Shown here: in pieces, positions 26,719 to 32,306 of the stretch
Numbering within the stretch: the first letter of the stretch is position 1
How the letters are laid out: every line of letters begins with the position of its first letter
Source of the DNA: an uncultured Kiritimatiellota bacterium
GTDB lineage: Bacteria > Verrucomicrobiota > Kiritimatiellia > RFP12 > UBA1067
Assembly (NCBI GenBank): GCA_934667425.1
Contig: CAKULV010000007.1
Coordinates: 3,022 to 67,021 of the forward strand
Direction: 5' to 3'
DNA: 64,000 nt
Notes under the pieces: generated by a model
Database searches by the model: none
What the model saw: only the letters and a program-made list of their open reading frames with translations
What the model was told of the DNA's origin: nothing
Program-made: the position numbers and the translations under genes

Positions 26719-26846
26719 TATTTCCGCGTAAGATTTTCGACCGGCGCGGCAATATGAAATGAGGACTGGGAAGGCCCTGGTCCGGGGAAGCGCGAAGGCC
26801 GATTTTGCGTTTATGGCGTGAACGTCGCCACAGCAGGCGGAATTTA

Positions 26847-26855
26847 TGCTATAAT
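26847..26855 (+). promoter_or_regulatory. extended -10 TGCTATAAT at the start of the low-GC island
   Basis: tgctataat, with a predicted TSS near 26862. Confidence 0.35.
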
Positions 26856-26861
26856 ATCGGC

Positions 26862-26965
26862 AGATTTCAGCATTCGTTGCTTTGATCGGCTCAAGAGAAA
26901 CCTGGAAAATTTCTTATGTACGGGCCGGCAAAGAAGGGAATGCGCCTTTGGGCGCATTTTCTTCC
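26862..26965 (+). ncRNA. candidate ~100-nt sRNA or leader transcript: TSS downstream of the TGCTATAAT box, ending at a terminator hairpin
   Basis: The hairpin AATGCGCC-tttg-GGCGCATT at 26939-26958 is followed by ttcttcc. I see no convincing ORF with an RBS inside. Confidence 0.2.
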
Positions 26966-27066
26966 GCGTCTCGTACAGGGCTTTTCCAGGGCCTCTCTTG
27001 AAACGCGGTGGAAGATGTCGCCCTCTTCTTTTGCCGCGATCACTGGAAGGGCAAAAGGAGAAGTAG

Positions 27067-28616: not shown

Positions 28617-30047
28617 ATGACATGTTCGGGCGCGAGAGAATTTGACTTTCTCTCGCGTCTGTCTTGCTCATTGTTTCGTGAAAACACAAATTGGGCTTCA
28701 ACAATGCGGATAAAACTTAAGCAAGGTACATATTTGCGTACCTGCGGCAACGAGAGCTTGCTCTTTAATCCATGTACAGAAGCGGCTTGCGTTGCGCGTA
28801 ATGCGCAGCTGCTTCTTGCAAAATTGTCTTGTTCCTATAGGGGGTTGGATGATATTGTCGATGAAACAGCTCAATCATATGGTATCGATCGGGAAGTGGC
28901 AAAAAGCGATTGGCAAGAATTCTCAAGCAGATTATCACGACTGGGGCTGATAGAGGTTGACGATGCTTTTTTGCCCAGCGATGTGCAGATTGAAGAGTCG
29001 ACGACCGGCAATTATAGTGCAGATGGTGACGATGCGGACATCGCGACCGAGTTTTTTAAGAGAAACGATATTTTGTCCGAGCTGCACATGGATCTGTCAT
29101 CAGCCTGTACGGAAAGGTGTGTTCACTGCTATCTGCCTGATTACCCGAATCGTTTTCTAAATCTCCAGATTGTTGAAAAGGTTTTAAGAGAATTTAGGGC
29201 GGCACAGGGTGTAACGGTTTATCTAACAGGAGGTGAATGCATGCTGCACCCTGATTTCGATAGGATATGTCGTCTTTGCAAAGAACTTTCGCTTAACGTC
29301 ATTGTACTCACAAACCTGACATGTTGCGACACGGAGCGTGTCCAGTTGCTGAAAGAGATAGAACCGCAGTTTGTAAGTGTTTCGATTTACAGCATGAATC
29401 CTATAGTACATGACAGAATAACACGAGTTGCTGGAAGTTGGCGAAGAACAATGGACGCATTCCTTGTTTGTGAAAAGGCAAATATCAATTTAAGAATTGC
29501 AACGCCGCTACTAAAGGAAAATCAGTGGTCATTTGCAGAACTAGATCGCTTTGCGCGTGAACATCACGCCAAGCTTGCCCCTAACTTCACAATATATGCG
29601 AAAAGCAACGGCGACAAAAGCAACCTCCGTCACATTTGCACGTCTGAAGAACTCGAACGAGTGTTGAACGAATGCAAAGAGGTGTTTGGTAGAAATCTTT
29701 TTTGCGGTGCAGAGGATTCTTGGGAAGACAAGGTGTGCAGGATAGGAACTTTGAGGTTATGCATCAATTCCAGTGGCGATTATTATCCATGCGATGGAAT
29801 GCATGGCTATCGATTAGGGAATGCGCGCAAACATACGTTGAAGGAGATATGGAGCGGAGAAGAATTGTCTAGACTTAGGGGACTCAAAGTGGGCGATTTT
29901 ACGAGGTGCAGGACGTGTCAGGAACGAAAGTTCTGCCTTGTATGCCCGGCTTTCAATTTTAACGCTACAGGCAATTTGTTGACGCCACACAAGACGAAGT
30001 GTGAAACTGCGTCTGTTGTGCATCGTGTTTATGGAGAGAGGTCTTGA
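28617..30047 (+). CDS. radical SAM/SPASM-domain peptide-modifying enzyme with N-terminal PqqD-like RRE domain (paralog 1)
   Basis: The N-terminal ~90 aa are PqqD-like (...GNESLLFNPCTEAACVARNAQLLLAKLSCSYRGLDDIVDETAQSYGIDREVAKSDWQEFSSRLSRLGLIEV). CX3CX2C motif CTERCVHC. The C-terminal Cys-rich SPASM motif is ...CRTCQERKFCLVCPAFNF. An alternative start is ATG 28704. Confidence 0.75.
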   Translation: MTCSGAREFDFLSRLSCSLFRENTNWASTMRIKLKQGTYLRTCGNESLLFNPCTEAACVARNAQLLLAKLSCSYRGLDDIVDETAQSYGIDREVAKSDWQEFSSRLSRLGLIEVDDAFLPSDVQIEESTTGNYSADGDDADIATEFFKRNDILSELHMDLSSACTERCVHCYLPDYPNRFLNLQIVEKVLREFRAAQGVTVYLTGGECMLHPDFDRICRLCKELSLNVIVLTNLTCCDTERVQLLKEIEPQFVSVSIYSMNPIVHDRITRVAGSWRRTMDAFLVCEKANINLRIATPLLKENQWSFAELDRFAREHHAKLAPNFTIYAKSNGDKSNLRHICTSEELERVLNECKEVFGRNLFCGAEDSWEDKVCRIGTLRLCINSSGDYYPCDGMHGYRLGNARKHTLKEIWSGEELSRLRGLKVGDFTRCRTCQERKFCLVCPAFNFNATGNLLTPHKTKCETASVVHRVYGERS

Positions 30048-30048
30048 A

Positions 30049-31500
30049 ATGTTGATTAGATTGGCAAGACAGACGTTTGTCAGGCAATATGGCGAGTTTA
30101 CCTACCTGTTCGGGAAGGTGACGGCGTTTGACCAGGTCTTCCGCTCGGCCGGTCCGTTCTTTGCGCATATTACAAGAGAACCTAAAGATCGCGATATTAT
30201 CATCGACGAAATCGTGCGTGATTACGCCGATGCGCCGCGTGAACAGGTGGCGCGGGACTTCGACGAGTTTTTTGCGCCGCTCGTTGAGCTGAAAGTGATT
30301 CTCGCAGGCGAAAGCGCAGAGGAGTTAGATGCGCAGGAGCCGTTCTTCACCTATGACTGCGACGACCCGAAGACGGCGAGGGACGACCAGTACCATACTC
30401 CAGAGGAAATCGCCGCCCTGCCTTCTACGCTGCTCGAAAAGCACTTTGCCGAGCATCCGACGTTGTTCACTCTTCAGCTCGATATAACGCAGGCATGTAC
30501 TGAACGGTGCCGCCACTGCTATGTGCCGGAATATAACCCGCTGTTCCTCCCGTATGAAAAGATATGCGGGATTCTCGATGAGTTTCGTGAGATGGGAGGC
30601 CTGCACATTTCGCTCTCCGGCGGCGAATGCATGATGCACAAGGATATTGTGAAAATCATTGAGGCGGTGCGCGGACGAGACTGCACGGTTTCGTGTTTGA
30701 GCAATCTGACCGTCTGCACGGACGAGATAATCGATGCTCTTGTAGAAGCAGACGGAACGGTTCAGGTTTCTCTTTATTCGATGAGTCCGGCAATCCACGA
30801 CGAGGTGACGAGGCGCAAGGGATCGTGGCTTGAGACGATGGGTGCGATCATGCGCCTTCGCGCGGCGCAGATACCTGTCTTCATTTCATGTCCATGCCTC
30901 AAGATAAACTACAAGGATTATCCGGCTGTGATGAAATTCGCCGACTCGCTGAAAATGAACTCCCAGACGGATTTCATAATCATGGGTAAACAGGACGGCG
31001 ACACGTCTAATCTCTGCAATCGACTCGACCTTGCGGAGACACGGACGCTGCTTGAAGACGTGATCTTGAAATCCATTCCGATGAACAGCGAGTATTTCAG
31101 TCCGGGCAAGAAAGACCAGATGCTGTCGGACCAAGAATGGTGCAGGCGGAAAGTGTGTGGTGCATGTGTCGACACGATGTGTCTCAATGCGAACGGAGAG
31201 TATTATCCGTGTCCAGGCTTTGCCGGCGTTCCGCTTGGCAACTGCTATCGCGATTCGCTGCGACACGTATGGCTCGAATCTGAAGCTACGCGGCGAATTC
31301 GCGCCATAACAGGAGCCGATTTCCCAAAGTGCGCGTCCTGCAAGGACCGCGACTACTGTTCCGTCTGTTTGTGCCGCAACTTCAACGAGACGGGTGACAT
31401 GCTCAAACCCGCTGAACATTTCTGCAAGGTGGCGGCGATCAACCACGAAGTCGTGGACGAAAAGCAGAGGCAGATGATTGAGGCTGCGGGAAAGAAGTAA
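30049..31500 (+). CDS. radical SAM/SPASM-domain peptide-modifying enzyme with N-terminal PqqD-like RRE domain (paralog 2)
   Basis: ATG 2 nt after the upstream stop, with a GGAGAGAGG SD. RRE-like N-terminus (...DEIVRDYADAPREQVARDFDEFFAPLVELKVI). CTERCRHC. SPASM motif CASCKDRDYCSVCLCRNF. I prefer this start over the track's 30001. Confidence 0.75.
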   Translation: MLIRLARQTFVRQYGEFTYLFGKVTAFDQVFRSAGPFFAHITREPKDRDIIIDEIVRDYADAPREQVARDFDEFFAPLVELKVILAGESAEELDAQEPFFTYDCDDPKTARDDQYHTPEEIAALPSTLLEKHFAEHPTLFTLQLDITQACTERCRHCYVPEYNPLFLPYEKICGILDEFREMGGLHISLSGGECMMHKDIVKIIEAVRGRDCTVSCLSNLTVCTDEIIDALVEADGTVQVSLYSMSPAIHDEVTRRKGSWLETMGAIMRLRAAQIPVFISCPCLKINYKDYPAVMKFADSLKMNSQTDFIIMGKQDGDTSNLCNRLDLAETRTLLEDVILKSIPMNSEYFSPGKKDQMLSDQEWCRRKVCGACVDTMCLNANGEYYPCPGFAGVPLGNCYRDSLRHVWLESEATRRIRAITGADFPKCASCKDRDYCSVCLCRNFNETGDMLKPAEHFCKVAAINHEVVDEKQRQMIEAAGKK

Positions 31501-31511
31501 AGAAGCGGCCT

Positions 31512-32306
31512 ATGCTCTGCGATGCACACGTCCACATGGGCTACTATTCGCGAAAGGGGTGGCGAGAGCCGTTCTACTATTCGCCGCGAAGGATTTTGGG
31601 CGTATTGGACAGGTGCGGAATAGACGAATTCATAGTCTCTTCCACATGCGCCCAGGTTGCGGAGATCGGGGTCGATGCGATTTTTCGCGAGGCGCGCGAG
31701 ATGAAGCGGATTGCCGGCGGCCGTGCGCATCTATTCTTCTGGCTTTCGGGACATTTTTACGACGAGGATCCGGAGATGTCGTGGCTTGACATGGGGTTGT
31801 TCGAGGGTGTCAAGCTCCACGAAGTCGAAACACCATGGATGGAACGGCGAAGAGGAAATTTGAATAGTGTTCTCGCGGCGGCTGAAAAACGGAATATGCC
31901 CGTGATGTTCCATGCGGGACTGAATACCGGATGCCGCCCCTTCGAGCTTGCGAAAATCGCCTCCGCTCACCCGTCGGTTCGCTTCAATTTCGCGCATTGC
32001 CGGCCGTTGGACGAGATGGCCAAGGTTGTTTCTGATTGCTCTAATGTTTGGACGGATACCGCCTACATGGCTATCGGCGACTTCCCTAAACTGCGCGACT
32101 ACGACTGGCATGGCCGACTCATGTTCGGCTCCGATCTCCCTGTCTGGCAGGCCGGCGACGAAACGGGCCTTACGTCGAGGTACCGGGCCTATGCAAAGGC
32201 TCTGCGGGAGAGCGGGCTTCTGGATACGGCGGAAGAAGCGTTTGCCGGTTTTCTTCTGCCGGGCTGGTCAACCCTAAAGCCCTTGTCCCCATCGAAACGC
32301 AGCTGA
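31512..32306 (+). CDS. amidohydrolase-2 family metal-dependent TIM-barrel hydrolase
   Basis: MLCDAHVHMGYY..., with HxH at the N-terminus, MFHAG and FGSDLP. It starts 11 nt after the rSAM gene. Confidence 0.55.
   Translation: MLCDAHVHMGYYSRKGWREPFYYSPRRILGVLDRCGIDEFIVSSTCAQVAEIGVDAIFREAREMKRIAGGRAHLFFWLSGHFYDEDPEMSWLDMGLFEGVKLHEVETPWMERRRGNLNSVLAAAEKRNMPVMFHAGLNTGCRPFELAKIASAHPSVRFNFAHCRPLDEMAKVVSDCSNVWTDTAYMAIGDFPKLRDYDWHGRLMFGSDLPVWQAGDETGLTSRYRAYAKALRESGLLDTAEEAFAGFLLPGWSTLKPLSPSKRS

Follow-up and report, generated by a model that had tools for sequence, protein, structure and literature searches.

What is encoded by the low-GC island that lies between a protein kinase gene and uvrC in an uncultured Kiritimatiellota bacterium? 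We analysed a stretch of 64,000 nucleotides of contig CAKULV010000007.1 (hereafter, the window; coordinates without a locus name refer to it, and all of its features described here lie on the + strand), for which a first-pass annotation had proposed a cluster for a peptide that the ribosome makes and that is then modified post-translationally (RiPP). The proposed cluster comprised a Cys-containing precursor, two paralogous radical S-adenosylmethionine (SAM) maturases, each with a RiPP-recognition element (RRE) and a SPASM domain, and an amidohydrolase, together resembling no textbook cluster. All of the open reading frames (ORFs) placed by that annotation are present and its proposal stands, with no curated family matching at its cut-off. 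The locus is a new family within the known class of RRE-dependent radical SAM/SPASM RiPP systems, with maturases of probably divided roles, an obligatory amidohydrolase, two accessory genes and deployment as a cargo. Taken together with the maturation scheme proposed below, we consider it probable that this is a radical SAM RiPP cassette specific to gut and rumen bacteria of the Planctomycetes–Verrucomicrobia–Chlamydiae (PVC) group.

A conserved precursor with a variable core

The putative precursor gene (28460–28609) encodes 49 amino acids (aa) and is preceded by the strong ribosome-binding site GAAAGGAG, which is conserved in homologous loci. Searching 5.8 billion proteins, we found 50 homologues, mostly 42–49 aa long, that share a nearly invariant leader of 22 residues (MAYKKPxxVAKSxAKQSFVAGC; the columns M1, A2, Y3, K4, K5, P6, A10, K11, S12, Q16, F18, A20 and C22 are invariant in the homologue alignment) followed by a hypervariable, Cys-containing C-terminal half that falls into several core classes. 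Over all of the fetched loci, each with 1–3 precursor genes, there are 37 distinct peptides, and 36 of these have a second conserved Cys at 4–7 residues (usually 6) from the C terminus. In the window peptide, which has leader residues 1–22 and core Cys at positions 22, 31, 38 and 43, this second residue is Cys43 (in CMIVTAH). Cys are the sole core residues conserved across the core classes. Codon entropy in the leader is 0.49, 0.39 and 1.26 bits at positions 1, 2 and 3, respectively, so that variation is mostly at the third position, and the invariant Pro6 is encoded by all four of its codons across the homologues; together with the conserved ribosome-binding site, this shows that the ORF is translated and under purifying selection at the protein level. 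The peptide had no Pfam or NCBIfam match at E ≤ 0.01, the SCIFF model included.

In nearly every locus, a strong hairpin stands 10–40 nucleotides (nt) past the precursor stop codon (in the window, a 14-bp stem–loop of −23.9 kcal/mol at 28627–28661), with unrelated sequences and z-scores that are typically −4 to −11. Such a hairpin fits differential expression of precursor and enzymes, and would probably raise the ratio of precursor to enzyme transcript.

Two paralogous maturases

The two genes that follow, rSAM1 (28704–30047, with an alternative start at 28617) and rSAM2 (30049–31500), encode paralogues (31% identity, E = 6e-76) that both exceed the Pfam thresholds for Radical_SAM (PF04055; 70 and 76 bits) and SPASM (PF13186; threshold, 21.5 bits; scores, 45.9 and 30.5). 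Their CX3CX2C motifs read CTERCVHC and CTERCRHC, as first annotated, and the three Cys are invariant in 54 rSAM1 and 50 rSAM2 homologues. The annotation had also placed seven SPASM Cys in each enzyme; this holds for rSAM1, which has exactly 7 invariant Cys in the SPASM region, but rSAM2 has 9 invariant Cys plus one at 98%, the extra residues including the pair C370/C378.

The N-terminal RRE scores below the Pfam threshold for PqqD in both window proteins (20.8 bits for rSAM1 and 17.4 for rSAM2, against 23.4), but PqqD is matched by 26 of 54 rSAM1 homologues and by 17 of 50 rSAM2 homologues, and its fold is predicted in both. The AlphaFold2 models, with mean predicted local distance difference test (pLDDT) scores of 90.3 for rSAM1 and 87.4 for rSAM2, each start at the N terminus with a domain in which three helices come after four strands (pLDDT > 90); a radical SAM barrel and a SPASM domain follow. 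In Foldseek searches of the PDB, RRE-containing RiPP maturases rank first, with alignments of 416–520 columns (CteB at the top for rSAM1, followed by SuiB, then SkfB and TigE; SuiB at the top for rSAM2, followed by CteB and SkfB), and PqqE is also among the matches of both enzymes, whereas anSME (core of about 370 columns), viperin and MoaA align to the core only. These models confirm the predicted PqqD-like RRE, a winged helix-turn-helix, in both enzymes.

No NCBIfam equivalog model comes near its cut-off for either enzyme. The best is GeoRSP (81–94 bits against 400), and the two enzymes score 51/42 bits against 850 for AlbA, 49/48 against 300 for SkfB, 56/59 against 625 for StsB, 55/53 against 265 for MftC and 43/65 against 381 for PqqE; PapB gives 50.8 bits against 340.

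The gap of 7 nt that had been reported between the precursor and the first maturase gene applies to the ATG at 28617. We judge that start unlikely, as the homologues align from Met30 of the longer ORF and the conserved hairpin would otherwise fall inside the coding sequence. The alignment with rSAM2 begins at Met30 (28704), and homologue alignments and the gene calls in loci L002–L004 agree on it, so that rSAM1 probably starts at 28704, leaving a spacer of 94 nt that contains the hairpin. Two rSAM1 homologues (P0058 and P0121), each of 754 aa, have an FRG domain (PF08867) in addition.

A gene set of gut and rumen bacteria

Relatives of rSAM2 occur in 25 species-level genomes, of which the weakest (L031, from Limnocylindrales; 26% identity, partial) lies outside the family. 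The remaining carriers are metagenome-assembled genomes (MAGs) of PVC bacteria from gut or rumen; their labels are mostly Kiritimatiellae, Lentisphaeria or Victivallales, with Akkermansia on two, Verrucomicrobia on one and 'uncultured bacterium' on several from the rumen. When the window proteins were mapped onto all loci, precursor(s), rSAM1, rSAM2 and amidohydrolase were found together in about 24 of them, the amidohydrolase gene being upstream of the precursor in some and downstream of rSAM2 in others; this gene set, the core of the first-pass annotation, is syntenic across these loci. In the literature, we found no description of the leader motif or of radical SAM RiPPs in Kiritimatiellae or Lentisphaerae. 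The locus defines a precursor and maturase family that is outside both the curated models and the literature that we found, of which metagenomes of rumen and gut contain hundreds of members, in hosts of the PVC group from which almost no natural products have been characterised.

Two Lentisphaeria loci (L014, 12181–15928; L021, 12340–16090) carry a protein with a double GT9 glycosyltransferase domain and an ATP-binding cassette (ABC) exporter downstream of the amidohydrolase, and L011 (5711–7528) carries an ABC exporter without the GT9 protein. From these genes there is a hint that the product is exported and, possibly, glycosylated.

Contrasting evolution of the two maturases

Mean pairwise identity is 61% among rSAM2 proteins and 44% among rSAM1 proteins. 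For the window rSAM2 there are more than 100 clusters at 58–93% identity, whereas the next-best match of rSAM1 has 63% and the majority have 42–53%. The faster enzyme follows the core of the peptide. L007 and L020 have a common core (YMCC...CEIRRLK) and are reciprocal best rSAM1 matches (54%), whereas their best rSAM2 partners are other loci, the rSAM1 proteins of which are only 40–45% identical to theirs. Similarly, L017, with a core of the CxxxNxxC[ML]CGxL type, and L008 are 74% identical in rSAM1 and only 62% in rSAM2; the window and L008 show the reverse (85% in rSAM2 and 40% in rSAM1), which fits the unusual core of the window peptide. Three loci have a single radical SAM enzyme (L027, L029 and L063), in each case of the rSAM2 type, together with the amidohydrolase and shorter peptides.

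rSAM2 is the slow-evolving enzyme that is kept in every variant, and rSAM1 is the fast-evolving enzyme that is exchanged with the core class. From this rate asymmetry and the coupling of rSAM1 to core class, we infer that the targets of rSAM2 are conserved positions and that those of rSAM1 lie in the variable core. A division of labour in which one enzyme is tied to the leader and the other co-varies with the core would offer a natural setting in which to study the way RRE-dependent radical SAM enzymes are redirected to new cores.

The amidohydrolase and two accessory genes

The gene downstream of rSAM2 (31512–32306) encodes a predicted metal-dependent amidohydrolase of 264 aa, which scores 43.6 bits for PF04909 (Amidohydro_2; threshold, 26.4), in agreement with its initial annotation. 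Eighteen orthologues all have D4, H6, H8, K101, H103, H134, H162 and D208; this set (HxH, Lys, His, His, Asp) is, by sequence, the one expected for the active site of the metal-dependent superfamily, in which the ligands would be assigned to the barrel strands. The only significant solved relative in a profile search of the PDB is 3cjp, an uncharacterised structural-genomics protein, and a search of the PDB with the single sequence found nothing. By analogy, the simplest role would be a hydrolytic maturation step. In the bottromycin pathway, PurAH (also BotAH), a metalloenzyme of the amidohydrolase superfamily, removes a peptide segment from a RiPP (PMC10885120); the likeness drawn here is one of role, and PurAH acts after YcaO chemistry, whereas the enzyme here belongs to PF04909, with 3cjp as its nearest solved relative. 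That the gene is obligatory suggests a maturation step for which radical SAM RiPPs offer little precedent.

Three ORFs upstream of the precursor had been grouped with the cluster, and two of them do belong to it. A small membrane protein of 61 aa (27067–27252; peak hydrophobicity, 3.15) is the first gene of the cluster and has positional analogues with a similar hydrophobic or amphipathic N terminus in L006, L008, L009, L020, L022 and L029. A predicted β-rich protein of 66 aa (27266–27466) belongs to a family of 16 members, 65–72 aa long and all encoded in RiPP cargos, that was collected by an iterated hidden Markov model (E ≤ 1e-24, noise above 0.7); the window ORF itself joined on iteration only, having E = 0.79 against the first profile. 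As far as position and sequence can tell, both are conserved accessory genes and members of the cluster.

The third ORF, of 300 aa (27522–28424), is missing from the sister strain L002, through an 898-bp indel (27463–28360), and from every distant locus; we therefore reject it as a cluster member and regard it as a strain-specific insertion. It has 299 remote homologues, of which 10 of the 34 sampled match PF11185 (DUF2971), so that it can be described as DUF2971-like. NCBIfam gave no match for the 61-, 66- or 300-aa ORFs, Pfam gave no direct match for the 300-aa ORF, and neither PADLOC nor PHROGs matched any of the three or the amidohydrolase. In L020, an unrelated ORF of 324 aa (7348–8322) occupies the same position just upstream of the precursor, and the cluster may have an insertion hotspot here.

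A structured leader RNA and its neighbours upstream

Over the roughly 150 nt that separate the kinase stop codon from the first cargo gene, conservation is much higher than in the proteins on either side. A scan of rumen and gut metagenomes for this motif gave 51 loci, from which 46 copies were aligned. Six helices are supported: 96.8% of cells are paired, against 45–53% in slid controls, and compensatory change affects 15 pairs (2–8 in the controls) and 192 cells (2–38 in the controls). With the covariance model, the + strand scores 173 bits and the − strand 29; these scores and the many G–U pairs place the RNA on the + strand. The segment 26891–27038 is therefore a structured 5′ leader RNA that is supported by covariation and absent from Rfam, in which a search of 26600–28700 at E ≤ 1 gave only a spurious mir-14 match at the post-precursor hairpin. 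A terminator-like hairpin (GAAUGCGCC...GGCGCAUUUUCUUCC) is nested within its long-range stems.

About 35 nt upstream, the leader RNA is preceded by a TGnTATAAT/TATACT element, the position of which is kept in L002, L005, L008 and L020; in the window this element is an extended −10 element, TGCTATAAT, at 26847–26855, and we infer that it functions as a promoter. No promoter of the extracytoplasmic function (ECF) type was seen upstream of the cargo, where this conserved element stands instead.

Directly upstream are overlapping genes for an ECF-type sigma factor (25080–25757; Sigma70_r2, at 37 bits, is the only sigma-factor Pfam domain detected) and for a Ser/Thr kinase of the Hanks type that has a hydrophobic segment near its C terminus (25735–26718; Pkinase, 99.9 bits). 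The pair is found directly upstream of the cluster in the window and in L002, L005, L008, L014, L020 and L028; in loci whose contigs reach far enough upstream, the kinase gene adjoins that of the sigma factor. In the motif scan, 37 of the 51 loci have a kinase match before the leader RNA, 25 of them also a sigma factor; of the other loci, most end at a contig edge, others have no match and one (L049) is a chance match. Some RiPP cargos with no sigma/kinase pair next to them (in L006, L011, L025, L029 and L030) likewise have a diverged copy of the leader upstream, as detected with the covariance model.

Activation of ECF sigma factors through phosphorylation by Hanks kinases is a documented mechanism (PMC13147305, PMC8999054). 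The arrangement of adjoining sigma-factor and membrane-anchored kinase genes, with no anti-sigma factor evident, is shared with the ECF43 systems EcfP/PknT and EcfK/PknS described there. The likeness is one of gene arrangement; unlike in those systems, the downstream promoter here is sigma-70-like and a leader RNA intervenes. Because the promoter is of this kind, it is adjacency that suggests control of the cluster by the sigma factor. Upstream, the functional unit includes the leader RNA and probably the sigma factor and kinase as well, the sigma factor being a probable regulator that travels with the cluster and the kinase its presumed partner. Compared with the 210-aa copy of L002, the window sigma factor has a short tandem duplication between regions 2 and 4 (GRARSPSAP twice, at about 25400–25470), which is visible as overlapping BLAST segments.

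A swappable, strain-variable cargo

L066, a strain of the same species with flanks that are 98–99% identical to the window, has no RiPP cluster: homology stops at 27063, 3 nt before the ATG of the 61-aa ORF, and resumes at 32255, within the 3′ end of the amidohydrolase gene. In place of the cluster, this strain carries a surface protein of 1,736 aa with BACON domains (BACON/Fn3-associated; cassette at L066 4773–10633). In L065, the last ~255 nt of the amidohydrolase gene are retained, and such 3′ remnants mark strains that lost the cluster. In L002, the block from sigma factor to amidohydrolase (25098–32330) is 95–99% identical and has other genomic surroundings. The low-GC island is a swappable, strain-variable cargo that extends from 27064 to about 32255–32306.

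The low GC content itself was confirmed, at 0.43–0.57 between about 26750 and 33500 against 0.60–0.65 in both flanks. Its equation with the cluster stands in part: the cluster has 51.1% GC, against 60.3% for the remaining window, with rSAM1 the lowest gene (45.2%), but the stretch also contains defence-gene debris outside the cluster. In all 15 loci examined, cluster GC is below that of the host, whereas the sigma-factor and kinase genes, at 57–63%, are close to it. A scan of viral contigs found no rSAM2 relatives, which argues against phage carriage as the explanation of the low GC.

Cargos downstream of the leader RNA vary and include the RiPP cluster, proteins with BACON or Listeria–Bacteroides repeats, and large proteins (670–800 aa) with lipoprotein-like N termini. 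Besides the window (25080–27063), cassettes with variable cargo are found in L066, L065, L038, L054, L060 and L040, and differ both between loci and between strains of one species; L074 has at least two full-length sigma/kinase/leader cassettes. The strain-variable cargo behind a sigma/kinase pair and a new RNA gives a handle on the regulation and exchange of surface and secreted functions in uncultured bacteria. A tentative extension, which we consider unlikely in full, is that Kiritimatiellae have a modular platform for expression, made up of sigma factor, kinase and leader RNA, in which outward-facing cargos, either RiPP clusters or giant surface proteins with BACON or Listeria–Bacteroides repeats, are swapped by recombination at fixed boundaries. 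In that case, the leader would be a cis-regulatory RNA of a new class, as riboswitch or attenuator, and the RiPP might be the signal of the kinase, closing an autoinduction loop.

Proposed maturation and its alternatives

In the scheme that we propose, the operon would be transcribed through the leader RNA downstream of the sigma/kinase pair, and the RRE domains of both maturases would bind the precursor of about 45–49 aa via its invariant 22-residue leader. rSAM2 would then probably make a universal modification at conserved positions (that is, Cys22 and/or the C-terminal-proximal Cys), and rSAM1 would probably install core-specific crosslinks, most likely Cys-to-carbon thioethers. The amidohydrolase would probably act by hydrolysis, to remove the leader or the C-terminal tail or to open an amide. 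Thioethers are the most likely crosslinks by family resemblance, with indirect hints from the conserved Cys and from the 7-Cys SPASM domain of rSAM1.

Several points weigh against this scheme. RRE-dependent radical SAM/SPASM enzymes also form C–C, C–O and other crosslinks, or epimerise residues, and members of PF04909 are mostly decarboxylases, hydratases and lactonases, not peptidases. As a structural match, SuiB, which makes a Lys–Trp bond, is as good as CteB. The rSAM1 of L009 is 78% identical to that of L008 despite a different core, a partial exception to the coupling described above; the window locus has neither protease nor exporter; and the conserved promoter looks sigma-70-like, not ECF-like. 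Conserved Cys of rSAM1 upstream of the SPASM region (C208, C256 and C312) complicate the counting of Cys, and because SuiB draws an auxiliary-cluster ligand from its linker (PMC6231123), Cys number is a weak predictor of how the first auxiliary cluster (Aux I) is ligated.

The strongest alternative, which we regard as possible though somewhat unlikely, is a RiPP without thioethers, in which one or both enzymes form C–C or C–O bonds, epimerise, or oxidise Cys, the Cys of the peptide being cluster ligands or disulfides. The rank of SuiB, first for rSAM2 and second for rSAM1, agrees with it, and so does the number of Cys in rSAM2, which would suffice for fully ligated auxiliary clusters as in SuiB, anSME and PqqE (PMC6231123). 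Moreover, in 7-Cys sactisynthases Aux I has an open site, which in CteB binds the substrate Cys just after the leader, and this Cys is not the one that reacts (PMC6231123). However, Cys are the only core residues kept across classes, CteB and SkfB are equally good matches, and the 7-Cys pattern of rSAM1 is like that of sactisynthases, whereas the extra Cys of rSAM2 are like those of the fully ligated enzymes (PMC6231123), a comparison that is suggestive only.

A quite improbable alternative is a small-molecule pathway like that of pyrroloquinoline quinone (PQQ) or mycofactocin, in which the peptide would be a sacrificial scaffold, the radical SAM enzymes would crosslink a few of its residues and the amidohydrolase would excise a redox or signalling molecule. 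The likeness lies in an RRE-dependent radical SAM/SPASM enzyme and a dedicated hydrolase acting on a small peptide: the universal third component is a hydrolase, as is MftE in mycofactocin, most loci lack a dedicated protease or exporter, the PqqE and MftC models match weakly, PqqE is a structural match, and two Cys positions are near-universal in the peptides. Cofactor precursors, however, conserve their modified residues, whereas the modified region here is a hypervariable core with several classes and 1–3 paralogous precursors per locus; downstream redox tailoring enzymes are missing, MftC and PqqE are far under their cut-offs, and some loci have ABC exporters of a peptide-export type. The idea that the enzymes are not peptide maturases, but anSME-like or of a cofactor/heme type next to an incidental small ORF, is effectively refuted: heme/NirJ/AhbD-type models are among the best NCBIfam scores, at a level similar to peptide maturases, but all of these are far under their cut-offs, the N-terminal RRE fold is lacking in anSME, AhbD and NirJ, the full-length structural matches are RiPP maturases only, and the conserved peptide gene, which is under purifying selection, is adjacent in every case, with no sulfatase or heme genes in the loci examined.

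For the preferred reading, that is, a RiPP with core-specific crosslinks, the closest known systems in layout are SCIFF peptides or ranthipeptides (CteA–CteB, Tte1186 and PapA–PapB). These combine a precursor of about 45 aa that has Cys in its C-terminal half with an RRE-containing radical SAM/SPASM maturase, and the Lys-rich leader of about 20 residues is conserved and ends in Gly, with Cys immediately after it, as here. Descriptions of the CteA leader and of its Cys3 are available (PMC6231123). Unlike these systems, the cluster has two paralogous maturases instead of one, an amidohydrolase, two small accessory genes, a hypervariable core and hosts that are PVC bacteria, not Clostridia.

In the literature (PMC6760926, PMC10470295), thuricin CD (TrnC/TrnD) and ruminococcin C (RumMc1/RumMc2) appear as systems of gut bacteria with two radical SAM/SPASM maturases and Cys-containing precursor(s). 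Paired maturases in one operon with such precursors are thus common to those systems and the present one; the TrnC/TrnD and RumMc1/RumMc2 pairs serve several precursors, whereas here the two enzymes differ in rate and one tracks the core. To our knowledge, neither system has an amidohydrolase. Streptide (SuiA–SuiB) shares the three-domain architecture of the maturase, but is distinguished by its Lys–Trp crosslink and shp/rgg regulation, and there is no family match here at the sequence level.

Plasmid relatives and flanking sequence

Beyond the PVC bacteria, conjugative plasmids of Escherichia coli (IncF) and Photobacterium encode a full-length radical SAM homologue (31% identity, 97% coverage), and a Salmonella plasmid gives an equally good match, at the protein level only. 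In the first two, an unannotated ORF of 38 aa (MSYSKPTVLAKSSTYMAQCRPNSKPSGRPCNPPGPSGR) lies directly upstream of the radical SAM gene, and its peptide (MSYSKPTVLAKS...) has the leader signature (pairwise E = 6e-5; profile E of about 1e-3, the top match). This minimal relative of two genes, a peptide and a single RRE-containing radical SAM/SPASM enzyme (L083, 6809–8437; L084, 4792–6428), has no amidohydrolase nearby and is flanked by recombinase genes in both plasmids, with insertion sequence (IS) elements additionally in that of E. coli. A megablast search with the E. coli plasmid module gave no match in RefSeq complete E. coli genomes. On a Thiodictyon syntrophicum plasmid (L085, 4707–10784), an RRE-containing radical SAM gene, a second radical SAM gene and a homologous amidohydrolase (E = 2e-11) are followed by YcaO and TfuA, with an IS66 element just upstream; by its gene content, this locus is a related trio extended with thioamide-type enzymes, in which we found no MAYKKP-like peptide.

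Downstream of the cluster in the window, the defence-gene debris (32428–33088) is common to strains L066 and L065 and thus lies outside the swapped cargo. It comprises a C-terminal AbiEi fragment (32428–32643) and an ORF (32591–33088) in which an AbiEii fragment is fused to the REase_MTES_1575 nuclease end of a helicase of the Hhe/ProA/PDC-S37 type. Further on, about 300 bp upstream of uvrC (33290–33595), within an ORF of 185 aa (33058–33615), have no counterpart in L066 or L065.

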